Shown: positions 4,144 through 16,278 of the stretch, in pieces
Layout of the letters: the number at the start of each line of letters is the position of its first letter
How positions within the stretch are numbered: the stretch's first letter is position 1
NCBI GenBank assembly: GCA_030527665.1
Contig: JAUNAK010000003.1
Coordinates: 10,942 to 74,941, forward strand
DNA: 64,000 bases
Direction of reading: 5' to 3'
Source of the DNA: Eubacteriales bacterium
GTDB lineage: Bacteria > Bacillota > Clostridia > Lachnospirales > Lachnospiraceae
Translations under genes and position numbers: made by a program
The notes under the pieces: generated by a model
Seen by the model: the letters and a program-made list of their open reading frames with translations, nothing else
Database searches by the model: none
Told to the model about the DNA's origin: nothing

Positions 4144-4454
4144 TTCCCTTCTCCTGTGTGTAAAACATAAAATCCCAACTATTACCAATAGCTTTTGACG
4201 TTTCGGATATATTTATTCCGCTTCCGAACCCTCATTATTCCCATTGATATCCTACACCTTTCCTATTATTTGCGCAACTTCTTTTATATGTTTTCCTAAT
4301 TTTCGTAATATATCTCTAAGTAAAAGCCCACCGGACATTCTTTTGCCTGCCTGGCAACTATGAAAAACACGTTTTGCGAGTTTCTCAAGTTGTCGCGGCG
4401 CTCCTTGAATGCTCGTGCCAGCACGGCATTCTCATCGCTGCCCGCACAAACACA

Positions 4455-4490
4455 AAAAGGAATGCCTCTCCTCCGATCGGCATTCCTTTT
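4455..4490 (-). terminator. Intrinsic terminator closing the RiPP-like cluster
   Basis: 12-bp stem AAAAGGAATGCC/GGCATTCCTTTT just after the stop at 4512, with a U-tract on the minus strand. Confidence 0.8.
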
Positions 4491-4511
4491 CCATATTCTG
4501 TACTGTTTCTG

Positions 4512-5624
4512 TTATTCTTCATACTCCCGAATCATAATAACACGGGCATTGTCATTCGTATAATGCTCCGGATAGATCGTCATCTCCATCCCCGGTTCCA
4601 GTCCTTCCAGCTTCGCGGTATAGGTGATACCTCCCAGATACATATTATCTGCCGTCAGCTTATAAAAGATACGAATTGCAGGAAGAGTCTCCCCGCTGAT
4701 ATTGGTGATGGTGATTCCATCTTCTTCAGCCGCTGCTGCCGTAACCTTCTCGCCAAGCATGCCCGCATCGCCGTAAGCGACCGTTACCGCACCGGGATAT
4801 ACCATGGTATCGGCATAGGCTGCCTGATTTTTCTCCAGAACAACTACGCTCTCACCAGCCGGAATCGCCGATGCTTCAAACTGCCAGGCTGCCCCGTCTG
4901 CGATCACTTCAAACTGTACCAGACTGATCAGACGATCTCCGGTATTCTCTATGATTGCAGCAGGCACATTGCTGCATTCTGTATCCAGCATCTGTTCGAT
5001 ATAGATACCTTCATACGGCCGGATTCCTTTCAGCCGCAGCGGTGTGTTTCCAAGCATGCCGTCATATTCCGACGCCTGCATAGAAGCTGTATCTTCTTCG
5101 CTTTCCACAGCCGGATTCTCCGGACTTCCATAGACCGGAAACTGCTCCAGGTCCACTTCATCCATATTGGCTGTTCCATCTGCACTTCTTCCGGTCTGTA
5201 CAGTATTACTGCTGCCGCTTTGCTCCGCTGCATCATCGGTCTCATTTACAGGAGGTGTACTGCTGTCCGGCTTCTGTTCTTCCTGCAGTACGGCAGTTTC
5301 ATCCGTTTTCTCCTGGTCCGATGGCTCGGAAGTTACCCTGATTCCAGTTTCTTCATCCGCGCCGCCAATACTCGTGGAAGAAGTCTCCCCCTTTTCCTGC
5401 TGCAAGGTCTGCTCTGCGGGCGTCTGCACAGCAATGCTGCTGTCTGCGGCAGTATCGATTGTCTGTTTCTCTGCCTCCTGTGCGGGTCTGCCGGCTGCAA
5501 GCTTTACTGCAGCGACAGCGATCACCAGAAGCACAAGAACAAGCACTGCAATTCCAACCGGGGTTTTGACCCATGCCTTGATTTTTTCCATACCTTCCGG
5601 ATTCTGTTCCTTCTTATTGCTCAT
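4512..5624 (-). CDS. Membrane-anchored hypothetical protein (N-terminal TM, acidic linker, C-terminal beta-rich domain)
   Basis: Hydrophobic stretch PVGIAVLVLVLLVIAVAAV, then an E/T/S/D-rich linker and a globular C-terminus; starts 9 nt after the rSAM stop with an AAGGAG RBS. Confidence 0.8.
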   Translation of the reverse strand: MSNKKEQNPEGMEKIKAWVKTPVGIAVLVLVLLVIAVAAVKLAAGRPAQEAEKQTIDTAADSSIAVQTPAEQTLQQEKGETSSTSIGGADEETGIRVTSEPSDQEKTDETAVLQEEQKPDSSTPPVNETDDAAEQSGSSNTVQTGRSADGTANMDEVDLEQFPVYGSPENPAVESEEDTASMQASEYDGMLGNTPLRLKGIRPYEGIYIEQMLDTECSNVPAAIIENTGDRLISLVQFEVIADGAAWQFEASAIPAGESVVVLEKNQAAYADTMVYPGAVTVAYGDAGMLGEKVTAAAAEEDGITITNISGETLPAIRIFYKLTADNMYLGGITYTAKLEGLEPGMEMTIYPEHYTNDNARVIMIREYEE

Positions 5625-5633
5625 GTTTTCTCC

Positions 5634-6794
5634 TTACTCCATCGTTCCGGTATATCCGGACTTTCCTTCTTCCATCTCTTCCAGAACCTGCCTGCACGCA
5701 TCTGTATAGCATTCCGTCATCCGGCATCGGTACAGCGGTTCCTTTTCATAATCCCCGCTCTCGGCAAGCACCATCGCCGCACAGACCCCGCATTTCTTCC
5801 TTGATGCACAGGATGTACATTTTGCAGGCATACGGATTGCAGCCGTTCTCTGTACGATCGTTTTCCATGCACCGGCAAAACCCGTTTCAATAATATCTGC
5901 AGACGGCTGATCCAGCATACCGCAGGAAAGCATCTTTCCTTCCCATGTGACCCAAAAGGAGGATTTTCCCGCATGACAGCGAATGCCTTCCCGCTCCTCT
6001 GTCGTCTCCGTCGTAAAATCCAGACAGCTGTCCTCTGCCAGCATAGTATCCGTCCGTTTTCGGAATGCTTTCGGTCCCATATTGTACAGCTGGTTCCAGG
6101 CACTGTAGTAAGCTGCTGTTTCCGGTGTGAAACGGTCGTTTCTCCCGATATTTTCTCTTCCCTTACGGATCGGCGGAAACAAGTAGGTAACTGTCTGGAT
6201 ATACAGCTCTTCCTCTGCGGCGATCTTCCGAATAGCATGAAAATCCTCTGCATTATACGGAGTAACGGTATAATTCAGTTTTACTTCGATGCCTTCCCGC
6301 TTTAACAGATGTATTCCGCGCATGACCTGATCAAATCCCTGTGGATTGGCACACAGCCTTGCATACGATGCGTTGGAGGCTCCATACAGGGTAATGTTGA
6401 TGCGGATCGGTGGTCTCTCTTTCAGCCAGCTGATCACCTGCTCATCGATCAGCGTACCGTTGCTGTTGATCGTGAGTACAAATCCCATGTCATGCAGTTC
6501 TTCATAGATCTCCCGGAAATCCGGCCGCAGAAAAGGTTCTCCGCCGGTCAGAAGCAGGAACAGCAGCCCTTGTTCCCGGGCCTCTCTTCCGATACGGATC
6601 CACTCCCCGGCAGGCAGAAGATCCCGTCCCATTTCTTCCCGCGTCTTTCGTACATAGCACATTCTACAGTTCATATTGCACATCGGAGTCAGTTCAAACG
6701 TGCCTCCGATCGGAATCTGCAGACGATCCGCTTTTTGATACAGATAGGTATTAAGTCCGGGAAGTTGATACTGTACATTCATCCGCTGTCCCAT
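5634..6794 (-). CDS. Radical SAM/SPASM-domain protein, putative peptide maturase
   Basis: CNMNCRMC (CxxxCxxC), LTGGEPFL and a 7-Cys SPASM pattern (CHAG...SC...CTSC...CGVC...C). An alternative start lies at 6782. Confidence 0.92.
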   Translation of the reverse strand: MGQRMNVQYQLPGLNTYLYQKADRLQIPIGGTFELTPMCNMNCRMCYVRKTREEMGRDLLPAGEWIRIGREAREQGLLFLLLTGGEPFLRPDFREIYEELHDMGFVLTINSNGTLIDEQVISWLKERPPIRINITLYGASNASYARLCANPQGFDQVMRGIHLLKREGIEVKLNYTVTPYNAEDFHAIRKIAAEEELYIQTVTYLFPPIRKGRENIGRNDRFTPETAAYYSAWNQLYNMGPKAFRKRTDTMLAEDSCLDFTTETTEEREGIRCHAGKSSFWVTWEGKMLSCGMLDQPSADIIETGFAGAWKTIVQRTAAIRMPAKCTSCASRKKCGVCAAMVLAESGDYEKEPLYRCRMTECYTDACRQVLEEMEEGKSGYTGTME

Positions 6795-7665
6795 CCTCCT
6801 TCATTTTTTCCTTCAGACACTGCACCGCCTGTTCATCCGGTGTACAGGCCAGCAGATATACCGGAATGTCCCCCGCAAGCGTAATCAGTTCCTGCAGGAT
6901 CCTTTCCTGCAGCTCACGGATCCAGGAATAGACAAACGTCTCACTGAGCATTCGTTTAAAAGCTTCTGTCACATCCAGACGCCGGATCCGGCATTCCTTC
7001 GCCTGCTCCAGAAATACAATTGCCTGTATGGACGCCGAATCATTCCGATAGATTCCGGATGTCCCTGCGTAAGGCAGACCGTACGCCTTCCAGTCTCCGG
7101 CAATTCTGCGCACGCCGGTTCTGTCACCATTGATGATGGTCCATCCCTGCAGTTTTTCCCAAAGCTCTGCCTGCGTACTCTTTCCGGCACCGCTGCGTCC
7201 GGAAAACAGAATTGCCCGGTTTCCTTTACAGATGCATGCGCTGTGCATAATAAAGGCACGCTTCAGATTCAGGATCATGGTCAGTTCCATATGTGTAAAC
7301 AGCCCTAGCGCCGATTCCAGATTGATCTCCGTTCCGATTCCTCTGCACAGCAGCTGAACAGGCCCCGTTCCTTCCTCTGCACGCAGATTGGTCTGCAGAC
7401 AGAAATACGGCTCTCTGCCCACATTGACCCGCTCATATTTCATAAGCGTACTGCCCGTCAGATAATACTGCGATGGCTGATTTTCAAATATTTTATATTC
7501 CTCCGAGGGCCTGTCATCGATCACATCGACCAGTGTCCAGTGTACGATGAAATCCGCCTCCCGGTTATTTTCCTCTTCAAAATCCGCAAAACGCTCCCCG
7601 GATCTCCATGCAAAGGGAGCCTCGATCTCTATGATATAATCGGCGATCCGATATTTTTTATTCAT
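6751..7665 (-). CDS. HPr-kinase-like P-loop protein, putative peptide kinase
   Basis: MHSA...AILFSGRSGAGKSTQ Walker A motif followed by IINGDR, a layout typical of HprK-related/ScmC-like proteins. Its 3' end overlaps the rSAM start; start chosen at MNKKY (alternative 7677). Confidence 0.75.
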   Translation of the reverse strand: MNKKYRIADYIIEIEAPFAWRSGERFADFEEENNREADFIVHWTLVDVIDDRPSEEYKIFENQPSQYYLTGSTLMKYERVNVGREPYFCLQTNLRAEEGTGPVQLLCRGIGTEINLESALGLFTHMELTMILNLKRAFIMHSACICKGNRAILFSGRSGAGKSTQAELWEKLQGWTIINGDRTGVRRIAGDWKAYGLPYAGTSGIYRNDSASIQAIVFLEQAKECRIRRLDVTEAFKRMLSETFVYSWIRELQERILQELITLAGDIPVYLLACTPDEQAVQCLKEKMKEDGTADECTVSTSRT

Positions 7666-7692
7666 ATATTCTCTCATACATAGGTTTTTATG

Positions 7693-7846
7693 CCAAAAAC
7701 TTGTGCAGCTGCAGCGCACTTGCTGCCCGGCAGTATCATCCAAAGTTCCTATTCCAAAATCGTGTACGCCTGCCGCGCACCCGCTGACCCGGCAGCATCA
7801 CCCATGGTTCCTGTTCCCAAATCCTGTGCGCCTGCCGCACACCTGC
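7693..7846. repeat. Imperfect ~62-bp tandem repeat, about 2.5 copies
   Basis: Matching motifs recur at 7693/7754/7816, CCCGGCAG at 7726/7788 and GTTCCT at 7745/7807. Confidence 0.8.
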
Positions 7847-7890
7847 AGCTCGATTCGTATTACGAATACTGCCGCCTATGACAGAACATA

Positions 7891-7910
7891 GCCGGGTCAA
7901 AAGACCCGGC
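7891..7910 (-). terminator. GC-rich stem-loop downstream of the precursor-like peptide gene
   Basis: GCCGGGTC-AAAA-GACCCGGC about 25 nt after the peptide stop. There is no clear U-tract, so it may be a stabiliser or partial terminator. Confidence 0.55.
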
Positions 7911-7934
7911 CATACTCTGATACCTATCCTGTTC

Positions 7935-8210
7935 TCAGGATGTGAACACCTGTACATTATCTCCGCCTGAGTTGTAGCACCAGATGCCGACGGAATTGGC
8001 ATCCTCGACATAGGCATCTCCACAGGCATCCTGGTTACTGTAAGCAATAACAGCACCGTTATCCATCCAGGCACAGCTGTATGGATCTCCCTGTGCGGGT
8101 CCTCCCATACTGCCGCCGCCATTTGAACCTGCACCGCATGCTCCGGCAATGTTTGCCGATAAAGAATACTGCTCAAAATAGACGGCAGGCTTCAGATATT
8201 TCTTCTTCAT
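7935..8210 (-). CDS. 91-aa putative RiPP precursor peptide
   Basis: Strong RBS (GGAAAGGAG). Leader MKKKYLKPAVYFEQYSLSANIAGAC, Gly-rich acidic core with Cys25/46/63/78, C-terminus VQVFTS. Lies in an operon with RRE, kinase-like and rSAM genes. Confidence 0.75.
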   Translation of the reverse strand: MKKKYLKPAVYFEQYSLSANIAGACGAGSNGGGSMGGPAQGDPYSCAWMDNGAVIAYSNQDACGDAYVEDANSVGIWCYNSGGDNVQVFTS

Positions 8211-8225
8211 TTTCTATCTCCTTTC

Positions 8226-11200
8226 CTACCGTGTAAATACTCTTGTGAATGCACTGACAACGCGTGCTGTCCACTCTTTCAGAATCTCTGAATTTCTTTT
8301 GGTCGTGTTATTCTGAATGATAACATCAACAGAGTCTGCGGAAATCGTAGTTCCCTCTACATGTGAATCGGCATCCGGTTCCGTCTGACTGAATGTTGCT
8401 GCATAATCCAGTGTATTGTAACCGGTATTCAGCAGCTGCTCTTTCTGTGCTTCCGTCACACCTGTTACACGAATTTCTGTAATAGCCAGAAGATTATTGC
8501 CCTCATTCTGAATAACCACATGTCCGTCTGATGTCGGTGTGATCGGATAATACAATTCAGCTGTGGAAGTAACGTCGATCGACTTTGTACCCCAGTCGTT
8601 GGTAACCTTTACCCGGGTACTCTTTCCTTCCGGTGCTTTCAATCCGATGAATACATGATTGCTTGTATTGGAATATCCGGCAATCGTAAATGCAATGCAG
8701 TTCGGGTTGGAGAGATAAACCTCATTTTTCGGACCATCTTTCTCATAAACAGATGCATCCGCTGTAGTATACGGTACATTATCCAGATATACCACTCCGT
8801 TTCCGGAAGCCGATTCTTCATCAACATCTCCGACGTTCGGATCATTGAATACATCCAGTGATCCATCGCTGTTGATACTGCTCAGAAGTACATCACGGAC
8901 ATTTGCATAGGCATATTCATTTTCAAATGCCTGATTATACGCGTCATATGCAACTGCGCTGTCCGGATTCTCCTTGTCATCTACATCGATCGGATTATGA
9001 ATACGAATGCCATCCAGATAATATGTCGTTTTTTCTCCCTTTGTATTCGGGAACACCTTCAGTTTTACTTTATACTCTGCATGCTCATCCATTACAAAAC
9101 TGAGTGTCGGAACCACATACAGTCCATCACCGGCTCTGTCATACATATTATCCACATACAGAATCTTTTTCAGTGTTTCTGAATCGTCATCATTCTTCAT
9201 GTAGATTCTTGCATAAATTTTGGGAGAAGAAGTATCTGTCTTGGTGAAGATTTCTACACCGGTTCCCTTGAAGGTAAACTCTGCTTCGGCACCGTTTTCC
9301 ATTGCAGTTGCTCCGTCGTCACTGAATCCCTTCTGATCTTCATAAGATGCATCATAGCCGTATACCGTATTTTCACTGGACTGTACTTCATTTGATATAA
9401 TTTCATTTGCAGAATAATCTCCGCTGTATTTGATTACCGTTTTTCCATTCGCAGAACTGAAATTATCCTCATAGTAAACACTGGTTGCCGGAAGAATCGT
9501 TACTTTTGCAATATTCTCTGCATTACCTTCCGCAGCACTGTTTCCGACAACATACTGCAGAGTATCTACCTGGTCCATAAAGGTATTGGGAGTATATCTG
9601 ATCTTGGTTCCTGCTTCTATTGCTGCCGTTCCACAGGAAAGTCCAAGATCCTGTGCAGCAAACGGATCATCCGAAATATCAACTTCCGCACCGTCACTGC
9701 TTATTTCAGACTTATACTCGCGGATTCCGCCGATACGCGGATTGGTTTCATTCAGAATATCATTTTTCAGAACATCGATATCCACCGGTCTTCCATAATC
9801 AAGAACGACCAGATCATCATGCGCTTCGGAAACCACTTCGTTCTTACATACATAACGATACGACGGAGCAGCTGCTCCCTTTGTTACAGCTGTTGCCTTT
9901 GCGATCTCCAGTTCCGGGCTCTGGTGTCCGTTCTTGTTGATCGTATTGCTTCCCAGTCCAACGGCTTCCCAGGAAGTTACCGACTGCGGCTCCTGACTCT
10001 CTACAAAATATACGTAGTCCGGATCCGTGTCATCATACAGATCCTTCTCAATATAGAAGCTGACACGCTGATCACCTTTCATACTGAATTTGCCGTCTGC
10101 ACTTGTTGTTCCGGTTTTTACCAGTTTGTTATTACTGTTATATACATAATATGCAGTTCCGGCAAAAGGCTCAGCAGATGTATTCTTTCCGGATTTTTTG
10201 TATGCAGTAAACTCAAATTCCAGATCATTCAGCTTATTCTTAAGTTCCGTGTCCGATTCAGAAACCGTATTGGTAACTGCTTTTGTCAGACTTACTACCC
10301 TTTTCTGCGGAAGGTTGAATTTGATCCGGCAGTTGGACAGATTGCCGCCTCGCTCCAGGTAAAATACCTGCAGAGTATGCGGCGTCGTGGAACTTCTCCA
10401 TTCCGTATCACTGGTTCCCAGAGTTGTCCACAGATTCTGCTCGTCTGCATAATTGCGATTTCCCCATCTGTAGGTAATATCTCCGGTCGCAAAGTTAACC
10501 GCTCCCTGTACAGCATCATGAATTCCACCGATGTCAAGTACCAGTTTTCCATCGATGAATACCCATACATCATCATCGCCGGTAAATTCAAAGCTGATCG
10601 GCTGACCATTCTCGTCTCCGTTGATCTTACCATTCTCCGTCATGAAGAACTCTGTAGAAAAGGTCATGCCGAAATGGATGTTGCTTTTTCGGTTTTCACT
10701 ATAACTGTTTCTTGGATAAAACGGGAAAAAGCCGTATCCGTTTCTGCTGCTTCCTGTCAAAGTAGCATTGGAACTTGGGTAACGATTCTGAAAGTGTACA
10801 TCATAGGTTGCTGAATTCAGCTCATAATATCCGGTACGACTGTTGTACTGAAACGGAACCTGCACATTGGTGTATGTATATTTTCCATTGGCACTTGTCG
10901 TTGGATCCAGAATACCAATATTGTCATATTTGATATTGATATTACCGTTTGCATCCAGCGTATCTTCTGCAATACCAAACGTAGGACTTCCGCCGTTGCC
11001 TGTCCAACGGTTGTAGGCATAGTTATTATCCTGACCATTATTGAAGAAAAAGGTTCCCCTCGCATTGGTCTGGGATCTATTGATGTTCGTTGTGTCATAG
11101 TCGAACATATTTACCGAAAAATACGCCGTCTTATCATCAGCGGCCTGCAGCATGGATTCGTTTTCTGCCGTCTCCTCCAGTGTGTCATCTGCCGCTGCCG

Positions 11201-11279
11201 TTACACCGGTGCCCAGCAAAGTCGTACACATCATGGCGAGGGCCAGAGAAAGCGAAAGTATTTTTTTCCTCTTTATCAT
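8226..11279 (-). CDS. Secreted fibro-slime (PA14-related) domain surface protein with Ig-like modules
   Basis: Signal peptide; fibro-slime signature FEFTGDDDVWVFIDGKLVLDIGGIH and QVFYLERG; VDIDVLKND cadherin/Ig-like module; amphipathic C-terminal tail. Start chosen at ATG 11279 (GTG at 11285 also possible). Confidence 0.82.
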   Translation of the reverse strand: MIKRKKILSLSLALAMMCTTLLGTGVTAAADDTLEETAENESMLQAADDKTAYFSVNMFDYDTTNINRSQTNARGTFFFNNGQDNNYAYNRWTGNGGSPTFGIAEDTLDANGNINIKYDNIGILDPTTSANGKYTYTNVQVPFQYNSRTGYYELNSATYDVHFQNRYPSSNATLTGSSRNGYGFFPFYPRNSYSENRKSNIHFGMTFSTEFFMTENGKINGDENGQPISFEFTGDDDVWVFIDGKLVLDIGGIHDAVQGAVNFATGDITYRWGNRNYADEQNLWTTLGTSDTEWRSSTTPHTLQVFYLERGGNLSNCRIKFNLPQKRVVSLTKAVTNTVSESDTELKNKLNDLEFEFTAYKKSGKNTSAEPFAGTAYYVYNSNNKLVKTGTTSADGKFSMKGDQRVSFYIEKDLYDDTDPDYVYFVESQEPQSVTSWEAVGLGSNTINKNGHQSPELEIAKATAVTKGAAAPSYRYVCKNEVVSEAHDDLVVLDYGRPVDIDVLKNDILNETNPRIGGIREYKSEISSDGAEVDISDDPFAAQDLGLSCGTAAIEAGTKIRYTPNTFMDQVDTLQYVVGNSAAEGNAENIAKVTILPATSVYYEDNFSSANGKTVIKYSGDYSANEIISNEVQSSENTVYGYDASYEDQKGFSDDGATAMENGAEAEFTFKGTGVEIFTKTDTSSPKIYARIYMKNDDDSETLKKILYVDNMYDRAGDGLYVVPTLSFVMDEHAEYKVKLKVFPNTKGEKTTYYLDGIRIHNPIDVDDKENPDSAVAYDAYNQAFENEYAYANVRDVLLSSINSDGSLDVFNDPNVGDVDEESASGNGVVYLDNVPYTTADASVYEKDGPKNEVYLSNPNCIAFTIAGYSNTSNHVFIGLKAPEGKSTRVKVTNDWGTKSIDVTSTAELYYPITPTSDGHVVIQNEGNNLLAITEIRVTGVTEAQKEQLLNTGYNTLDYAATFSQTEPDADSHVEGTTISADSVDVIIQNNTTKRNSEILKEWTARVVSAFTRVFTR

Positions 11280-11333
11280 ATCCACCTCTTTCTAACCTTT
11301 CTGAAAAAAGGTCGTAATACATGCATTTTCTTC

Positions 11334-11377
11334 AGTATAACCTGTGTTTCCGTATTCGTCCTCATCCTTTTGGATGA
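11334..11377 (-). promoter_or_regulatory. Putative MalT/LuxR-activated promoter: -10 TATACT plus TCATCC-N4-GGATGA palindrome
   Basis: Minus strand reads TCATCC AAAA GGATGAGG...TATACT. There is no canonical -35, and the MalT-like regulator gene is adjacent. Confidence 0.55.
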
Positions 11378-11409
11378 TTTTTGTGTATTTTTTTACTATT
11401 TTCGCATTT

Positions 11410-13794
11410 TCAGCCCAGTAATTCCTGTTTCTTTCCCATAAAAACAGCCTTTGTTCTGCTGCTGACTCCGAGTTTTTTATATAGATGCTGCAGATGCGTT
11501 TTAACCGTGGAAATCTCGAGACTGTGTTTCTCTGCGATCTGTTTATTGCTGAGTCCTTCCTCCAGATCCGCCAGCAGCAGCTTTTCCGTTGGGGTCAGCC
11601 GCTCCTTGTTCTGAACGGCAGCCATACTGTTCTGTTTCATCTGCCTGCCGGATTTTCGTATCAGGATCCGCAGATATTCCGTCTCCGGTGCCTGCAGAAT
11701 ATTCGAGTAATGATAGGACTTCCTTTTTACATGCGGCTGCTCCTGCTGTTTCTGTGAATCCAGATATGCATGCAGCAGCTCGCTTCCCGTCTCATCATAT
11801 TCCGTATAGAAGCGTCCGTACCGAAAGCGATCGGAAATGGCAAAGGACTGTGCCGTCTCCCGCAGTGCCGATGCATATTGTTTTTTCTGGTGATGCACGA
11901 TTGCCTGCATAAACAGGATCTCTGCGATGATCCGTGAGGAATCCATTTTCTCCGCTTCCGGCCGGATCCTGTCCAGGATCTGTTCAGCAGCTGCATATTG
12001 TTTTTCCCGAAGCAGCAGACGTGTGTATGCAAACAGCGGGTAAAATTCTCCTTCCACGCTCCACTTTGCCAGATTGTTTCCAAATACTTCCCTGAGTTCG
12101 GTATGATATTTCTGACGCTTTATCGGTCCCGCAAATGCAGCTTTGGCCAGTATAAAACGAAGACGTGTCTGCTCATTCTCCTGCATGAGCCTCTCTCCCT
12201 GCTTCTCCCGATCTTTTTCCGCTGCATGTTCTTCCGTAAAACCAAGCTGTCCGTTTATTTTTGCAAGTACCGGTACATACTGCTCCGGCATTTCAGCCGC
12301 ATATTCCTGCAGCCGTTCCCGGTGTTCCTGCGTAATCTCTTTTTCACGAAACGTTTCTGCCAGATACTCCGCTCTGGCAAATTCCAGATATGCCTGTTCC
12401 TTCCTTTCCAGACATTTCTTCCATATTCGGGTATAGCGATTCTGTTCTCTGCGCAGATCGGCAAAAACAAAAGCCATATCCCGCAGCCCCCACAGGCAGG
12501 ACACACTGCTGCCGACCGGGTGATACAGCCGGCACTTCTGTTCATCACTAAAGGATTCCTCCAACAGCCTGAACCAGTCTTTACCGGACATCCAGGGAGA
12601 AGCAAACTGCAGATTGCAGACGGCTTCCCGGGCTTCCGTCTGCTTCATCTTCTGCAGTTTCTGAATACAGGTCTGCAATGCTTTTTGATTTTTCTGCTGT
12701 ACTGCCAGCATTCCCTTCAGATAGAGAAGACGATGATCGGCGCCCTTTTCCTCCCATTTTCCGGCCTTTCGATAATTCAATGAAAGAAACGGGATCTCCG
12801 TATAATGCCGCAGACAGAATGCCTTCCATTCCTTTCCCCCCAGCTTTTCCCAAAGCTTTCCTGCTTCCTGCAGATTCTCCTGTTCTTCATACAGGCGGGC
12901 AATCATTTGCCTCATCTCGTCCGCTTTCTCCGGCTCCCGGGCAGGGCGGAAGATCTCCCAAACGAAAAATTTCTCCTGCTGCCGCCGGCGATAGAAGATC
13001 CCTTTCCGTTCCAGATCTTCACCGGCATCCATACGATTCTCCGAGCTGCAGATCTTCTCTAATGCATACGGAAGAATACCGTCTGCAAGGGACGCAAGCT
13101 GTACACAATATTTCTCATCTTCACTTAAAGATCCCAGTATCTCTTCCTGCAGCAGTACCTGCATCTCATAACCTGTCAGAAGTCCGGAAACAGAAATTTC
13201 CTGCTCCTGTCCCCGGGTTTTCTCCAGCACAGGCAGAAGTGCTGCGATTCCCGGCCAGCCGCCGCTCTTTGCATACACGGTTTTGCTGCTTAAACGACTG
13301 TTCATTTCTTTCAGAAACGAACGCAGTTCCTTCTCTGTAAACGCAAGCATCGGCTGGGTGATCATTCCCATCTCTCCGTGCCACAGCAGTTCCAGAAGCA
13401 GATGATCCGGTTTTTCTCTGCCAGCAAGCAGAATATGATTCTCCTTTGGCAGCCGCCCGATCGTATCACAGATCCTTTTCCGCAGCTTCTCCGGAAGAAG
13501 CATGGAATAATTATCCAAAAACAGACAGCAGCCGGTCCTGTCTTCCGCATCTGTCCCCTGCACCAACATTTCCGCCAGTACCTCCGGAAGCCTTTCCCGG
13601 TCATTTTCCCTCTGCAGATCCAGTTCTTCTGTTCGGAAATTCGCATCTGCCGCCTGCCGAAGAAACATCCGCGCGGCAGTCGTTTTGCCGCAGCAGGCAG
13701 CTCCCTCTAAATAAATAGAAGGAAATCTTTCGATTTCCTTCTGAATAATACTTCCTCTATCCACTTGTAACCGACTGGTCTCAGTCATTTTCAT
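11410..13794 (-). CDS. MalT-like (STAND/LAL) LuxR-family transcriptional regulator
   Basis: N-terminal Walker-A-like GAACCGKTT and SGGWPG motif; C-terminal LuxR HTH LTPTE...GLSNKQIA...STVKTHLQHLYKKLGV. Confidence 0.88.
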   Translation of the reverse strand: MKMTETSRLQVDRGSIIQKEIERFPSIYLEGAACCGKTTAARMFLRQAADANFRTEELDLQRENDRERLPEVLAEMLVQGTDAEDRTGCCLFLDNYSMLLPEKLRKRICDTIGRLPKENHILLAGREKPDHLLLELLWHGEMGMITQPMLAFTEKELRSFLKEMNSRLSSKTVYAKSGGWPGIAALLPVLEKTRGQEQEISVSGLLTGYEMQVLLQEEILGSLSEDEKYCVQLASLADGILPYALEKICSSENRMDAGEDLERKGIFYRRRQQEKFFVWEIFRPAREPEKADEMRQMIARLYEEQENLQEAGKLWEKLGGKEWKAFCLRHYTEIPFLSLNYRKAGKWEEKGADHRLLYLKGMLAVQQKNQKALQTCIQKLQKMKQTEAREAVCNLQFASPWMSGKDWFRLLEESFSDEQKCRLYHPVGSSVSCLWGLRDMAFVFADLRREQNRYTRIWKKCLERKEQAYLEFARAEYLAETFREKEITQEHRERLQEYAAEMPEQYVPVLAKINGQLGFTEEHAAEKDREKQGERLMQENEQTRLRFILAKAAFAGPIKRQKYHTELREVFGNNLAKWSVEGEFYPLFAYTRLLLREKQYAAAEQILDRIRPEAEKMDSSRIIAEILFMQAIVHHQKKQYASALRETAQSFAISDRFRYGRFYTEYDETGSELLHAYLDSQKQQEQPHVKRKSYHYSNILQAPETEYLRILIRKSGRQMKQNSMAAVQNKERLTPTEKLLLADLEEGLSNKQIAEKHSLEISTVKTHLQHLYKKLGVSSRTKAVFMGKKQELLG

Positions 13795-14068
13795 CGGTAT
13801 CTTCCTTTATCAATACATGGTTTGCATCCAGCTTCTCAATGAATGCAAGAATATCTTCTCTGGCAACAGCTTCTTCTACTTCATATTCTTCAAGTACCGC
13901 CCGGATCATCTCATCCATGTCGGTTCCCTTCTGCAGGAGCTTCCACAGCAATACACCGATCTCATTCAATGTGATCAGCCCGTTGAAATCCAATACGGTT
14001 CTTCCGGTCGGAATCACAATATATTCGCCTGCAATCTCTCTTATTATAAAATCATTTTTGATTTTCAT
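13781..14068 (-). CDS. Stand-alone PqqD-family RiPP recognition element (RRE)
   Basis: 95 aa: FIIREIAGEYIVIP...LITLNEIGVLLWKLL...LEEYEVEEAVAREDILAFIEKL. Its stop overlaps the regulator start by 14 nt. Confidence 0.9.
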   Translation of the reverse strand: MKIKNDFIIREIAGEYIVIPTGRTVLDFNGLITLNEIGVLLWKLLQKGTDMDEMIRAVLEEYEVEEAVAREDILAFIEKLDANHVLIKEDTDEND

Positions 14069-14189
14069 TCTGGTGCCGCCTTACATAAACAATACCTTTT
14101 TGCTTCTAACAATTATATCGAATCTCCTATACCCCGTCAACATGAACGAATAGTATGACTTTCACACAAGTTGTTTTCCCTATGTAATC

Positions 14190-14198
14190 TGTTATAAT
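14190..14198 (+). promoter_or_regulatory. Extended -10 promoter of the LRR protein gene
   Basis: TGTTATAAT upstream of an AGGAGG RBS and ATG 14230. Confidence 0.6.
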
Positions 14199-14229
14199 AG
14201 AGCAAAAACAGCAAGGAGGAACGCTGCAT

Positions 14230-16278
14230 ATGCGTTTTCATAAACGTTTCGAATCGATCGCACTATCTACCGTACTTCTTCTGTCTCTGTCTGCTTCTTC
14301 TGTCTATGCAGATGAAGCAGCTGCGGCAGAGATTTCTTCCGTTTCTGTCGAAGCGTCTTCGGAGGATCTGATTCTTCCTGAGACGGACAGCTTTGATGCT
14401 CTTTCTGAGACAGATTCCGATCCTGCATATAAGCCAGCCGCTGCAGACGGCTATGAAGCTTCAGAAATAGAAGATAATACGGCGGCTGATTCTGCATCCG
14501 AAGAAGATGCACTTCTGGCCGCCAATGACAAATGCGGTACTTCTGTAACCTGGAAACTGGACGGTCCTACGCTGACACTCAGCGGTTCCGGTTCCATGTA
14601 TGATTTCAGCAGTTCAACAGCCGTACCATGGGCCTCGAACGCGGATCAGATCACCACGATCATTCTCGAAGACGGCATCACTACCATCGGCAGATATGCC
14701 TTTACCGATCTGCCGGGTCTGCAGACGATCCGTATTCCATCCAGTGTACAGTCCGTCGGTGCCTTCGCTTTCAGCGGATGCAGCAGTCTGGAGGCAGCAC
14801 AGCTCCCCGATACGCTCTCTTTTATCGGTGTACAGGCTTTCTACGGCTGCAGTTCCCTTCGCTCTGTCAACATCCCGGATGCTGTCACAACCATCGGAAG
14901 CAAGACCTTTTACGGATGCAGCAGTCTGGAATCCATGGTTATTCCCAATCGTGTGAAAACACTTGGGTTTAATGCTTTCTATAATTGTTCTTCCTTGAAG
15001 ACATTAACGCTGTCTTCCTCCCTGAAGACGATTGAAGCAGCCACTTTCTATGGCTGTACTTCACTTACGAATCTGGTTATTCCGGAAGGCATCACCTCGC
15101 TGGAAACAGCTGCTTTTAAAGGCTGTTCCGGATTAACGTCGGTCTCCCTGCCCTACACTCTTCGCACTGTCAAAGAACAGGTCTTCTTCGGCTGCGAGAG
15201 TCTGAAGCAGGTCAACCTTCCTGCCGAAATCAAAACGGTCGAAAATGACACCTTTTCCGGATGCACCGCCCTTACATCGATTACGCTGCCTTCCGGCATA
15301 ACTTCGATCGGCGAACGAGCCTTCTTCAACTGTGAAGCACTGGCATCCCTGCAGCTGCCGGCATCTGTTTCTTCCATTGGCGAAGGTGCATTTTTCAATT
15401 GTTCTTCCCTGACTTCTCTGACTTTGCCCAAAGCTCTGAAAGTCATTGATTCTACCGTATTTGCTGCCTGCAGCGGACTGCGTTCGGTTACCCTCTCCGA
15501 TGCCGTGACCGAAATCGGCAAAATGGCCTTTTTCGGCTGTACGTCTCTTTCAGAGATCACTTTCCCTGCATCTCTGACAAGTATCGGAGAAAATGCCTTT
15601 GCAGCAGATACCGGTCTGAAAAAGATCACCTTTAAAGGAAATGCCCCCGCCATGTCCGACGACTGGCTGGAAAATTACTTCAGCGGAAACCAGATTCAGG
15701 CAAATGCGTATTTCCCGTCAAAGAACAAAAGCTGGACAGCAGCGGTTCGCAAAAATTACGGGGCGACAAAGATCACCTGGATCGGCGTCGGTACTGCTTC
15801 GATCACACCGACACCGACTCCCAAACCAACCGCTTCCGTCACACCGACACCGACTGCCAAACCGACAGCTTCCGTTCCGATGTATCGTCTGTACAATCCG
15901 AACAGCGGAGAGCATTTCTATACCGGCAGCCGAGGCGAGAAGGACCATCTCGCAAAGATCGGCTGGAATTATGAGGGAATCGGCTGGAATGCTCCGGCTG
16001 CTTCCAAAACACCGGTATATCGTCTGTACAATGCGAATGCCGGCGACCACCATTACACGACATCCAAAGGTGAACGGGATGCATTGGTCGCTGTTGGCTG
16101 GAAAGCCGAAGGAACCGGCTGGTACTCCGATGATGCCAAAGGCAAAGCCCTGTACCGCCAGTATAATCCGAATGCCGTAACCGGTACGCATAACTACACC
16201 ACCAGCAAATCGGAAAACGATTACCTTGTTAAGGTCGGCTGGAAAGCCGAGGGAATCGGCTGGTACGGCCTGAAATAA
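14230..16278 (+). CDS. BspA-type leucine-rich-repeat surface protein with C-terminal RLYNPN repeats
   Basis: Signal peptide, 14 x 23-aa LRR units (LxxxxLPxxxxxIGxxAFxxCxS), PTPTP linker and three YRLYNPN/YTT modules (DUF5648-like). Confidence 0.9.
   Translation: MRFHKRFESIALSTVLLLSLSASSVYADEAAAAEISSVSVEASSEDLILPETDSFDALSETDSDPAYKPAAADGYEASEIEDNTAADSASEEDALLAANDKCGTSVTWKLDGPTLTLSGSGSMYDFSSSTAVPWASNADQITTIILEDGITTIGRYAFTDLPGLQTIRIPSSVQSVGAFAFSGCSSLEAAQLPDTLSFIGVQAFYGCSSLRSVNIPDAVTTIGSKTFYGCSSLESMVIPNRVKTLGFNAFYNCSSLKTLTLSSSLKTIEAATFYGCTSLTNLVIPEGITSLETAAFKGCSGLTSVSLPYTLRTVKEQVFFGCESLKQVNLPAEIKTVENDTFSGCTALTSITLPSGITSIGERAFFNCEALASLQLPASVSSIGEGAFFNCSSLTSLTLPKALKVIDSTVFAACSGLRSVTLSDAVTEIGKMAFFGCTSLSEITFPASLTSIGENAFAADTGLKKITFKGNAPAMSDDWLENYFSGNQIQANAYFPSKNKSWTAAVRKNYGATKITWIGVGTASITPTPTPKPTASVTPTPTAKPTASVPMYRLYNPNSGEHFYTGSRGEKDHLAKIGWNYEGIGWNAPAASKTPVYRLYNANAGDHHYTTSKGERDALVAVGWKAEGTGWYSDDAKGKALYRQYNPNAVTGTHNYTTSKSENDYLVKVGWKAEGIGWYGLK

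Follow-up and report, generated by a model that had tools for sequence, protein, structure and literature searches.

INTRODUCTION

The linear polyphosphorylated peptide (LPP) and paeninodin-type lasso clusters of Bacillota (PMC13381572; PMC9266682) have a discrete lasso-type PqqD RiPP recognition element (RRE), an HprK-like kinase, and a precursor with an N-terminal [Y/W]xxPx[LVIFA] leader, the element bound by discrete lasso and LPP RREs (PMC13381572). The locus described here shares these three components, as well as a conserved Ser as the likely phosphorylation site (C-terminal, as in paeninodin-type precursors) and frequent placement in or near capsule/EPS loci; in some of its relatives, a SpI-like peptidase, an NTP_transf_5 gene, and an MsbA-like exporter are adjacent. 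However, it has no lasso cyclase and no B2 protease, and the cassette studied has no SpI peptidase, NTP transferase, or exporter. It adds a radical SAM (rSAM)/SPASM enzyme, a four-Cys core, a giant secreted protein, and a tethered Ig-like protein. The LPP paper mentions no radical SAM enzyme.

The SynChlorMet cassette (ScmC/ScmD/ScmE/ScmF; NCBIfam TIGR04248-04251, Pfam PF27840) and the GeoRSP system (TIGR04302/04303) contain the same three kinds of component: a PqqD-like protein, an HprK-like ScmC protein, and rSAM/SPASM enzymes. Homologues of the kinase-like gene studied here are assigned to PF27840 ScmC, but all equivalog scores are far below cut-off (ScmC, 17 against 125; ScmD, 17 against 100; ScmE, 82 against 400; GeoRSP rSAM, 69 against 400; GeoRSP PqqD, 40 against 100). 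We found no published function for those cassettes in the literature searched, and they are not known to include a large secreted protein.

In the maturation of quinohemoprotein amine dehydrogenase (QHNDH; QhpC/QhpD/QhpE/QhpF with QhpA/B), a small (~80-aa) four-Cys polypeptide with an N-terminal leader, QhpC, is crosslinked in the cytoplasm by the rSAM/SPASM enzyme QhpD; the leader is then cleaved, and the peptide is exported by an ABC transporter to join Sec-exported large subunits (PMC7876137). The genes lie in one operon whose order varies between species. The resemblance to our locus is an analogy of logic only. There is no detectable sequence relationship beyond the rSAM superfamily, the hosts are Gram positive, the partner is an adhesin-like surface protein with variable heads and not a dehydrogenase, there are an additional kinase-like enzyme and a separate RRE, and the core has no dedicated protease or exporter.

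Sactipeptide and ranthipeptide maturases (SkfB, CteB, PapB, and StsB) and the protein thioether system CrpA/CrpC, in which an rSAM/SPASM enzyme acts on a Cys-rich protein (PMC13692751), also combine an rSAM with a 7-Cys SPASM domain and a Cys-bearing substrate. SkfB and CteB are among the nearest solved structures to our rSAM, there are weak hits to StsB and PapB, and 2 of 60 peptides touch the StsA model. However, scores are far below the family cut-offs, the RRE is separate rather than fused, the substrate is much longer, and thioether chemistry is only inferred for our locus.

RESULTS

Structure of the locus

The window analyzed is a stretch of 64,000 nt from a gut Lachnospiraceae-like bacterium (GCA_030527665.1, contig JAUNAK010000003.1, positions 10,942 to 74,941). 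An earlier note, made from the sequence alone, described seven co-oriented genes at 4512-14068 as a candidate undescribed RiPP system. That observation is correct: all seven open reading frames (ORFs) exist on the minus strand, between a strong promoter-like site and a hairpin terminator, and their domains are as the note described (Table 1). The terminator that the note placed at 4455-4490 is real, being an 11- to 13-bp stem at 4454-4491 followed by a U-run, and the divergent gene at 14230 is present. The true start of the HprK-like gene is the ATG at 7665, not the TTG at 7743.

Table 1. Features of the locus (window coordinates; aa, amino acids)
Feature	Coordinates	Strand	Observations
Sigma-70-like promoter (TTGACG, 17-nt spacer, TATAAT) upstream of the PqqD gene	14112..14140	-	11 of 12 hexamer matches, the best in the region; a consensus match only
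Stand-alone PqqD-type RRE, 95 aa	13781..14068	-	PF05402, 64 bits; best NCBIfam hits are GeoRSP PqqD and lasso PqqD chaperones, all below cut-off
Large ATP-binding LuxR (MalT/LAL-like) regulator, 794 aa	11410..13794	-	GerE HTH at residues 732-786, 52 bits; partial MalT match at 594-788; Walker A motif GAACCGKT
Sec-secreted large protein, 1019 aa: signal peptide, fibro-slime/PA14-like head, conserved C-terminal module, acidic linker, amphipathic C-terminal tail	8226..11285	-	TIGR02148 at residues 230-321, 54.6 bits against a cut-off of 45; Sec-type signal peptide MDMIKRKKILSLSLALAMMCTTLLGTGVTAAA read from the translation
Conserved C-terminal ~460-aa module of the large protein (residues 556-1019)	8229..9620	-	No Pfam family; only a weak PDB profile hit to a glycosidase beta-sandwich
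Precursor-like peptide, 91 aa	7935..8210	-	YxxP leader (MKKKYLKPAVYFEQYSLSANIA); Cys25/46/63/78; C-terminal VFTS; AF2 pLDDT 56
Strong hairpin directly after the peptide gene (possible attenuator or RNA-stabilizing stem)	7882..7919	-	dG -34.1 kcal/mol, z -6.95; 0 of 200 shuffles fold as well; no clear U-tract
Two tandem 59-nt copies in the peptide-to-kinase spacer; unexplained	7726..7846	-	83% identical; unique to this locus within the genome; no Rfam match
HprK-like P-loop protein of the ScmC family, 304 aa, putative peptide Ser kinase	6751..7665	-	Weak hits to HprK_rel_A/B and ScmC (TIGR04352, TIGR04355, TIGR04249)
rSAM/SPASM enzyme with no fused RRE, 382-386 aa	5634..6782/6794	-	PF04055, 96 bits; best NCBIfam equivalog is AhbD, 115 bits against 500
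Membrane-anchored protein, 370 aa: N-in TM helix, low-complexity linker, C-terminal 185-aa tandem Ig/FnIII-like domain (4515-5069) predicted to face outward	4512..5624	-	AF2 pLDDT 95.1, all-beta; Foldseek top hits are IL-17RA, factor XIII barrels, and RbmA
Rho-independent terminator ending the operon	4441..4498	-	Stem AAAGGAAUGCC...GGCAUUCCUUU followed by UUGUGUUUG; dG -24 kcal/mol, z -4.13

The genes are closely spaced. The PqqD and LuxR genes overlap by 14 nt, 124 nt separate LuxR from the large-protein gene, and 15 nt separate the large-protein gene from the peptide gene. The peptide-to-HprK spacer is 269 nt and contains the strong hairpin. HprK and rSAM overlap, and 9 nt separate rSAM from the membrane-protein gene.

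Six of the seven genes form a conserved module

Comparison with 85 related loci showed that six of the seven genes form a conserved module in gut Clostridia. The rSAM family has more than 5,000 relatives. Of five genomic contexts looked up, all five showed peptide, ScmC, rSAM, and the unknown protein, four showed the large protein, and three showed PqqD (the remaining contigs are cut at an end). Among 80 rSAM-anchored genome loci, PqqD was present in 64, the large-protein module in 58, the peptide in 61, the HprK-like gene in 74, and the Ig-like protein in 68. Among the 37 loci with long flanks, 33 had the peptide and 28 had all six core genes; four or five of the 37 lacked a detectable peptide or large protein. 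The six genes occur in six different orders. Intestinibacter bartlettii DSM 16795 is a culturable carrier. Because the same gene set recurs in dozens of genomes, the grouping is far beyond chance.

In contrast, the MalT-like regulator, which the note listed with the other genes, is not core. It was found in only 3 of the 80 loci, and after PqqD in L028 and L029 (L numbers designate individual loci in our comparison), and is a lineage-specific accessory. An MsbA-like exporter (21/80), an S24/S26-like peptidase (10/80), and an NTP transferase (9/80) sit beside the module in some relatives, a further correction to the note, which had remarked on the absence of a leader protease and an ABC exporter; neither an exporter nor a peptidase is part of the conserved core.

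The peptide family

A single-sequence search found no homologue of the peptide, and no Pfam or NCBIfam model covers it. However, a profile search found 2,109 clusters at 50% identity in 1.84 billion representatives, aligned over their full length with the same motifs. The peptides are ~70 to 96 aa long. In family alignments, Y5, P8, C78, and S91 were invariant, and E13, A22, C25, C63, Y79, and F89 were conserved at ≥90%. Y5 and P8 form the [Y/W]xxPx[LVIFA] motif; position +5 after the Tyr was hydrophobic in 67 of 67 peptides, and the first Cys lay 19 to 20 residues after the Tyr in 62 of 67. Exactly four Cys were present in 53 of 68 peptides, 68 of 68 ended in Ser, and 64 of 68 had F at -3; the same pattern held in 149 metagenomic representatives. 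The core between the conserved Cys is highly variable, and AF2 found no autonomous fold.

The enzymes

The nearest solved structures to the RRE are lasso B1 proteins, TbiB1 (5v1u) and 9x90_B/9x8z_B. In the rSAM, C35/C39/C42 (CxxxCxxC) and seven C-terminal Cys arranged as a SPASM motif (C-x17-C ... CxxCx5CxxC ... C) were invariant in 27 homologues. The enzyme falls below the cut-off of every NCBIfam equivalog, and its nearest solved structures are BlsE, SkfB, PqqE, and CteB. In the HprK-like protein, the P-loop SG.GKST, the NGDR motif, and a His were ≥95% conserved in 82 homologues, and its gene precedes and overlaps the rSAM gene in 77 loci. HprK-like paralogues also occur in non-RiPP contexts, for example, in a pdu/BMC operon of the same genome.

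The surface proteins

The note called the large protein a fibro-slime surface protein, but its conserved, system-specific part is the C-terminal ~460 aa, not the fibro-slime head. This module was found in 64 ORFs in all searched loci, behind heads of different kinds (fibro-slime here; VWA, Flg_new, or BNR elsewhere). The window protein is 43% identical over its full length to that of L026 but about 32% identical, over the C-terminal half only, to the VWA-headed proteins of L028 and L030. C-terminal tails are of the type W..hh..h+.hF.R(W). Exactly one module-bearing protein was found per genome in 7 of 7 genomes. The peptide gene usually starts 4 to 20 nt after the large-protein gene or overlaps it (median gap of 14 nt, with many 4-nt overlaps). 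Of the homologues of the Ig-like protein, 74 of 74 have a TM segment or lipobox, with a charge of +3.8 before it and -0.9 after it.

DISCUSSION

The note's interpretation, that the locus makes a radical-crosslinked and possibly phosphorylated peptide that is surface associated rather than a classic bacteriocin, is supported. It withstood the checks that had been set for it that we could make from sequence: homologous rSAM and kinase genes do co-occur with a similar peptide, and no characterized non-RiPP function was found for the family in NCBIfam, Pfam, PDB, or the literature searched. The peptide also has what a substrate of an RRE and a kinase should have, and the idea of a surface-associated product is strengthened because the large secreted protein is a core, translationally coupled partner and the "membrane protein" is an outward-facing tandem Ig-like protein. 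We found no published description of the module.

What our data show is that the six genes travel together in many genomes and in several gene orders and that the peptide gene is normally translationally coupled to the large-protein gene. The rest is inferred, including the chemistry, the export route, and any physical association of the products. We consider the following explanation somewhat more likely than not. The stand-alone RRE would bind the invariant N-terminal YxxPx(L/I/V/F) leader and present the peptide to the rSAM/SPASM enzyme, which would install intramolecular crosslinks in the otherwise unstructured core, most likely thioethers from the four conserved Cys; because the rSAM falls below the cut-off of every curated family, C-C bonds, epimerization, or other reactions are also possible. 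The HprK-like enzyme would (poly)phosphorylate a Ser, most likely the invariant C-terminal Ser, which is the residue that HprK-like lasso kinases phosphorylate in their precursors (PMC9266682). However, in LPPs the homologous kinase phosphorylates Ser3 of the core, so the target Ser is uncertain. The matured peptide would then leave the cell by a route not encoded in this cassette, which has neither a leader peptidase nor an exporter; an orphan MsbA-like exporter elsewhere in the genome is a candidate. Outside the cell it would act stoichiometrically with the Sec-exported large protein and the outward-facing Ig-like protein as a subunit, adaptor, or anchor, which is the logic by which QhpC becomes the small subunit of QHNDH. 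Coupling to the large protein rests on gene linkage only. The HprK-like paralogues in non-RiPP contexts and the long-flank loci without a detectable peptide or large protein also count against this explanation. In this genome the MalT-like regulator would add lineage-specific control.

It is possible, although less likely, that the system makes a free-standing secreted RiPP, such as a bacteriocin or signaling peptide that is crosslinked or phosphorylated, released, and acts on other cells or on a receptor, in which case the large protein and the Ig-like protein would be immunity, receptor, or sensing components rather than structural partners. The enzyme set is that of classical RiPPs, a hairpin follows the peptide gene as with many precursor genes, exporters and peptidases lie next to some loci as in LPP clusters (PMC13381572), the core between the conserved Cys is highly variable, as in many bacteriocins, and a LuxR-type regulator is present in this lineage. 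However, translational coupling to a 1,000- to 2,500-aa secreted protein in most lineages implies equimolar synthesis, which is unusual for a diffusible product, and there is one dedicated large protein per genome. In addition, adhesin- or enzyme-like heads are not known immunity proteins, exporter and peptidase are not core, and a core of about 65 residues with a conserved C-terminal CY(N)...FxS is long for a bacteriocin-type RiPP.

We regard as unlikely the possibility that the rSAM/SPASM enzyme modifies the large protein itself before Sec export, perhaps in its C-terminal module or tail, with the small peptide being a chaperone, a decoy, or an unrelated small protein. SPASM enzymes can act on full-length secreted proteins, as the anaerobic sulfatase-maturating enzyme (anSME) does. 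They can also act on Cys-rich proteins (PMC13692751), and the module and tail are conserved and specific to this system. But the module has no conserved Cys (the window protein has a single, nonconserved Cys there). It is the peptide, not the large protein, that carries the YxxP motif at a fixed distance from its first conserved Cys, the invariant Cys, and the terminal Ser. Furthermore, rSAM/HprK/PqqD triads also occur with YxxP peptides and no large protein, in L111 and L019. Least likely of all is that the linkage has no functional meaning, the small ORF being an unmodified protein or not a real gene and the enzymes serving another, unseen substrate. The failed single-sequence search and the lack of a curated family would fit this view, but the profile search found a large family, and the peptide is retained next to the enzymes in six different gene orders. 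Its gene also has a strong RBS (GGAAAGGAG) 8 nt upstream of the ATG.

The gene cluster

The earlier note had described seven co-oriented, tightly spaced or overlapping genes, bounded by a divergent gene and a terminator, and this observation was correct in every particular. Coordinates are collected in the table below. The PqqD protein matched PF05402 (64 bits). Its best NCBIfam hits were the GeoRSP and lasso PqqD chaperones, all below cut-off, and its nearest solved relatives were the lasso B1 proteins TbiB1 and 9x90_B/9x8z_B. The large protein has a Sec-type signal peptide and a fibro-slime domain (TIGR02148, 54.6 bits against a cut-off of 45).

The spacer between the peptide gene and the HprK-like gene is unusually long (269 nt; roughly 30-90 nt in other loci) and contains a -34 kcal/mol hairpin (z -6.95) and two tandem copies of a 59-nt sequence. 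These copies are unique to this locus in the genome. An Rfam scan of 4000-14600 gave no matches; no riboswitch explains the long spacer or its repeat. The cluster is flanked by two further secreted surface proteins, and the region looks like a surface-protein island.

Features of the window, of the source genome, and of related loci (L, locus; G, genome; C, contig)
Feature	Location	Strand	Description
PqqD gene	window 13781-14068	-	95 aa
Regulator gene	window 11410-13794	-	794 aa; overlaps the PqqD gene by 14 nt; Walker A motif, TPR/MalT-like region, and GerE HTH
Large-protein gene	window 8226-11285	-	1019 aa
Peptide gene	window 7935-8210	-	91 aa; ATG fifteen bases after the large-protein stop codon, behind a GGAAAGGAG ribosome-binding site
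Tandem copies	window 7726-7846		two 59-nt copies, 83% identical
HprK-like gene	window 6751-7665	-	the ATG at 7665 is the start supported by homologue alignments
rSAM gene	window 5634-6782/6794	-	overlaps the end of the HprK-like gene
Membrane-protein gene	window 4512-5624	-	370 aa; starts 9 nt after the rSAM gene
Sigma-70-like promoter	window 14140-14112		11/12 match
Hairpin with a U-run	window 4454-4491		dG -24 kcal/mol, z -4.1
Flanking surface protein	window 2164-4188	-	674 aa; Cys-rich CxxC-type repeats
Divergent flanking surface protein	window 14230-16278	+	682 aa; leucine-rich repeats, ending in three ~45-aa YRLYNPN...GW repeats
HprK-like paralogue	source genome, C129:23257-23985	-	242 aa
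Orphan MsbA-like exporter gene beside CpsB; NTP_transf_5 and LCP genes at the start of C23	source genome, C122:55297-57899 and C23:115-3277
LPP-like cluster, same genus as the window (L014)	G012:C12:1-11208		LCP, metallophosphoesterase, SpI/S26-like peptidase, LytTR regulator, sensor kinase, rSAM, HprK-like, MsbA-like ABC, PqqD, CpsB
Two adjacent YxxP ORFs in a congener (L019)	L019 6417-7230 (G004:C47)		115 and 123 aa
Fusibacillus kribbianus locus (L111)	G614:C44:14000-30000		second copy of the module and an adjacent variant cluster
Inserted secreted protein	L030 7294-9057; L111 5780-7417		~545-590 aa; faint Exo_endo_phos match

Conservation of the gene set

The rSAM enzyme has more than 5000 relatives, of which more than 120 are over 50% identical. 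Five genomic contexts were inspected for three of these proteins. All five had the order small 78-94-aa protein, PF27840 ScmC, radical SAM, and then an unannotated 272-306-aa protein; four of the five also had an upstream 1000-1200-aa protein. Three also had PqqD, the other two contigs being cut at an end. Two of those three had a GerE regulator next to PqqD, whereas in the third (locus L030) the regulator lay several kb downstream.

We then used an rSAM alignment to retrieve 80 loci from species-representative genomes. The carriers were Lachnospiraceae, Oscillospiraceae (Faecousia, Vescimonas), Acutalibacteraceae, Peptostreptococcaceae (Intestinibacter bartlettii DSM 16795, Terrisporobacter muris), Anaeromassilibacillus, and others. 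Iterated HMM searches with the window's proteins on six-frame ORFs of these loci found PqqD in 64 of the 80, the C-terminal module of the large protein in 58, the peptide in 61, the HprK-like protein in 74, the C-terminal domain of the membrane protein in 68, and the LuxR regulator in 3. Many of these contigs are truncated. Among the 37 loci with long flanks, 28 had all six core genes, and each gene was present in 32-36. The six genes occurred in six different orders, which argues for selection on the set and not for inheritance of one frozen operon.

The peptide family

A word-indexed search with the peptide alone found only itself. However, we rejected the possibility that it is an orphan ORF because the positional homologues aligned, and a profile of 60 sequences then found 2109 clusters at 50% identity (737 at E<=1e-10) among 1.84 billion representatives. 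All top hits were 78-109 aa long and aligned end to end.

Y5 and P8 were invariant (60/60 peptides in the family alignment), and position +5 after the Tyr was hydrophobic in 67/67. E13, A22, C25, C63, C78-Y79, and F89 were conserved at 90% or more. The first Cys lay 19-20 residues after the Tyr in 62/67 peptides, and 53/68 peptides had exactly four Cys. All 68 of 68 peptides ended in Ser, and 64/68 had Phe at -3. No Pfam or NCBIfam model matched, although 2 of 60 members weakly touched the StsA sactipeptide model. We considered whether the N terminus might be a lipoprotein or Sec signal, but rejected this reading because E13 is conserved, there is no hydrophobic core, and the position of the Cys relative to "IA" varies. 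AlphaFold2 with the family alignment gave a pLDDT of 56 and a pTM of 0.29. No autonomous fold is predicted, as expected for a substrate that acquires its structure from cross-links.

The YxxPx(L/I/V/F) element is the motif that discrete lasso-type RREs recognize, and it is shared by the recently described LPP precursors (PMC13381572). A strictly conserved C-terminal Ser is the hallmark of precursors in clusters with an HprK-like kinase, where that Ser is (poly)phosphorylated (PMC9266682). In LPPs, however, the kinase targets Ser3 of the core, and so the C-terminal Ser is only a candidate site here.

The putative modifying enzymes

In 27 rSAM homologues, the cysteines of the CxxxCxxC site (C35, C39, and C42) and seven C-terminal cysteines were invariant. 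The seven are arranged C-x17-C ... CxxCx5CxxC ... C, which is a SPASM arrangement, and there is no room for a fused RRE. The protein matched PF04055 (96 bits), and PF13186 was precomputed for one homologue. These are the features of rSAM/SPASM peptide maturases of the sacti- and ranthipeptide kind. Nevertheless, the protein fell below the curated cut-off of every NCBIfam equivalog. Its nearest solved relatives were BlsE, SkfB, PqqE, and CteB, and these results leave its type of reaction open.

Scores of the cassette's rSAM, PqqD, and HprK-like proteins against NCBIfam equivalog models and their curated cut-offs
Model	Score	Cut-off
AhbD	115	500
ScmE	82.4	400
GeoRSP rSAM/SPASM	69	400
ScmF	62.1	400
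StsB	59	625
PapB	51	340
GeoRSP PqqD	39.8	100
ScmD	17.3	100
ScmC	16.9	125

In 82 homologues of the HprK-like protein, the P-loop (SG.GKST), an NGDR motif, and a His were at least 95% conserved, which fits an active NTP-using enzyme. However, the fold is not specific to RiPPs. The paralogue on contig C129 of the same genome, 34% identical to the cassette's protein over the P-loop half, sits inside a pdu-type microcompartment (diol-dehydratase/BMC) operon, between a PduO-like adenosyltransferase and a PHP phosphatase and near diol dehydratase and its reactivase. HprK-like homologues within the genus were likewise not in orthologous cassettes but in capsule loci, LPP-like clusters, or a pdu operon; thus, the kinase fold alone is not diagnostic.

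The large protein and the Ig-like protein

The large protein is homologous over its whole length to a fibro-slime-headed protein in related locus L026 (43% identity), but it matches the VWA-headed proteins of loci L028 and L030 only over residues ~560-1019. Across the loci the heads are VWA, Listeria-Bacteroides repeats, a BNR/sialidase-like propeller with Big_2, or fibro-slime, whereas the ~460-aa C-terminal module is constant. That module has no Pfam family, and profile searches against PDB and Pfam gave only weak, sub-threshold beta-sandwich hits (a glycosidase beta-sandwich). All these proteins have N-terminal signal peptides, and many end in an acidic linker followed by a short amphipathic aromatic/basic tail, for example, ...EWTARVVSAFTRVFTR and ...TWIQNIISDFKKLFGRW. 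We considered whether the module might be a general sorting signal used by many proteins. This reading was rejected for now because each of seven genomes examined contained exactly one protein with the module, as did the window's genome, which indicates a dedicated partner.

The conserved part of the membrane protein is its C-terminal 185 residues, for which AlphaFold2 gave a confident all-beta model (pLDDT 95). Its Foldseek neighbors were tandem FnIII/Ig-like modules: IL-17RA, factor XIII barrels, and RbmA. All 74 homologues have an N-terminal TM helix or a lipobox. Because the mean net charge is +3.8 before and -0.9 after the hydrophobic segment, the domain is predicted to face outward.

Linkage of the peptide to the large protein

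The peptide gene follows the large-protein gene in 57 of 66 cases, with a median gap of 14 nt, and many pairs overlap by 4 nt. In the remaining orders, the peptide gene follows the gene for the Ig-like protein. The HprK-like gene precedes the rSAM gene in 77 loci. In some loci (L030 and L111), a secreted protein of ~545-590 aa, which may be an optional accessory enzyme, is inserted between the peptide gene and the ScmC gene. The pattern points to equimolar, cotranslated production of the peptide and a giant secreted protein, and it is not the pattern of a typical bacteriocin precursor.

The closest precedent in logic is QHNDH (PMC7876137). The leader-bearing, four-Cys QhpC is cross-linked in the cytoplasm by the rSAM/SPASM enzyme QhpD, is then trimmed and exported by an ABC transporter, and assembles with Sec-exported subunits; the genes lie in an operon whose order varies between species. 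That the peptide described here is likewise a stoichiometric subunit of an exported complex is inferred from genetic evidence only, namely, the translational coupling and the 1:1 count per genome. rSAM/SPASM thioethers on a Cys-rich protein have also just been shown for CrpA/CrpC (PMC13692751).

Interpretation

The earlier note had inferred that the locus makes a radical-cross-linked and possibly phosphorylated peptide and had suggested a surface-associated, structural, or signaling product rather than a classic bacteriocin, and this interpretation was supported. The locus is a previously undescribed, conserved variant of an rSAM-type RiPP system whose product is genetically tied to a surface protein. 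We found no description of it in NCBIfam, Pfam, PDB, or the searchable literature, in which searches on SynChlorMet, on ScmC, and on HprK together with radical SAM returned nothing on this system. Our analysis establishes the gene content, the family-wide conservation and linkage, the motifs of the peptide, and, from structure prediction and charge bias, the fold and topology of the Ig-like partner. In contrast, binding of the RRE to the leader, cross-linking of the Cys residues (including any thioethers), phosphorylation of Ser, export, and physical association with the large protein are inferences.

If this reading is right, RiPP-type maturation (RRE, rSAM/SPASM, and HprK-like kinase) extends from free peptides to a component of large surface proteins in abundant gut Clostridia. 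Three protein families without a Pfam or NCBIfam model are defined: the YxxP/four-Cys/FxS peptide, the ~460-aa C-terminal module, and the tethered tandem Ig-like protein. The uncharacterized ScmC-type "SynChlorMet-like" enzyme triad gains a concrete candidate substrate that can be tested, and it is linked to the recently described LPP and paeninodin kinase systems. Because the large proteins carry adhesin-type heads (VWA, fibro-slime, and BNR), the module may affect how these commensals attach to mucus, fiber, or other cells. Cultured carriers exist: Intestinibacter bartlettii DSM 16795, Terrisporobacter muris DSM 29186, and Anaeromassilibacillus senegalensis.

A more far-reaching possibility, which we consider unlikely but which the data do not rule out, is that this is a previously unrecognized kind of Gram-positive surface-protein assembly or anchoring system. 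In this view, a radical-SAM-cross-linked, phosphorylated peptide of ~65 residues would be a stoichiometric subunit or adaptor. It would join one giant, head-swappable adhesin or enzyme, through its conserved C-terminal module and amphipathic tail, to the membrane- or lipid-tethered tandem Ig-like protein. RiPP chemistry would then be used to build a cell-surface structure rather than a diffusible natural product.

Relation to lasso, LPP, SynChlorMet, and GeoRSP systems

The cassette shares with paeninodin-type lasso clusters a discrete B1-type PqqD RRE, a precursor with a YxxP leader, and an HprK-like kinase together with a conserved C-terminal Ser on the precursor, although phosphorylation is only inferred. 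However, neither an Asn-synthetase-like macrolactam cyclase (C) nor a transglutaminase-like leader protease (B2) was found among the seven window proteins or among the recurrent neighbor families in the 80 loci. The SynChlorMet and GeoRSP equivalog models all scored below their cut-offs, but homologues of the kinase-like protein do fall in the broader Pfam family PF27840 ScmC.

Of the LPP core set (SpI-like [SipW-type] peptidase, RRE, HprK kinase, NTP transferase, and MsbA-like exporter), the window cassette has only the RRE and the kinase. The peptide family shares YxxPx(h) and a following h-E-x-F with the LPP leader consensus YxxPxVLxHQxIxFETxxS, but with shorter spacing and no conserved HQ or T-x-x-S. 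Recurrent extra neighbors of the module among the 80 loci were an MsbA-like ABC exporter (21 loci), Wzz (16), CpsB (12), LCP (12), an S24/S26-like peptidase (10), and NTP_transf_5 (9). Apart from the capsule genes, this is the LPP core set, and LPP clusters are themselves embedded in capsule loci (PMC13381572); that paper does not mention radical SAM enzymes.

Sister clusters were seen in three places. L014, an LPP-like cluster embedded in a capsule locus, also contains a two-component system and an rSAM/SPASM enzyme (36% identical); no precursor was found in this stretch. In L019, the two tandem ORFs with YxxP leaders (MAVIDLYKKPMII... and MEMYRKPEIM...) lie next to an HprK-like gene and PqqD genes and are likely LPP-type precursors. 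In L111, Fusibacillus kribbianus carries a second copy of the present module, consisting of the large protein, the peptide, a 545-aa protein, HprK, and an rSAM that is split into two ORFs (possibly a pseudogene). Next to it is a different cluster of PqqD, rSAM, a 106-aa YxxP peptide, HprK, and an S26 peptidase, and an intact rSAM-HprK-Ig-like-PqqD set lies on another contig (locus L031). Thus, the window's module is one branch of a wider family built on an RRE, an HprK-like protein, often an rSAM, and a YxxP precursor. What distinguishes this branch is the four-Cys FxS peptide, the large protein, and the Ig-like protein.

The window cassette itself has no peptidase and no exporter. The genome does hold, on other contigs, an orphan MsbA-like gene, 65% identical to the L014 exporter, directly beside CpsB with no RRE, kinase, or rSAM nearby, and an NTP_transf_5 gene, but only a weak peptidase match. 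These genes may be remnants of an LPP-like locus, or the exporter may act in trans on the cassette's peptide; this is only a candidate route.

Distribution

Housekeeping neighbors of the cassette are about 82% identical to Lachnospiraceae proteins, but none of 20 same-genus genomes has an orthologous cassette. A search with the peptide profile was positive in 2 of 201 genomes of the host's order and in 1 of 401 genomes of the host's class, although the initial filter may miss short peptides. An rSAM search at the class level found only relatives that were 34-39% identical. The module is therefore rare and patchy around this host, which is consistent with horizontal spread. Two module-bearing contigs (loci L074 and L087) are assigned to Bacteroidaceae bins although all other carriers are Clostridia, which is probably a binning or labeling error rather than true presence in Bacteroidota. 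The large-protein gene is the most AT-rich stretch of the locus (GC 0.42-0.45 against about 0.50).
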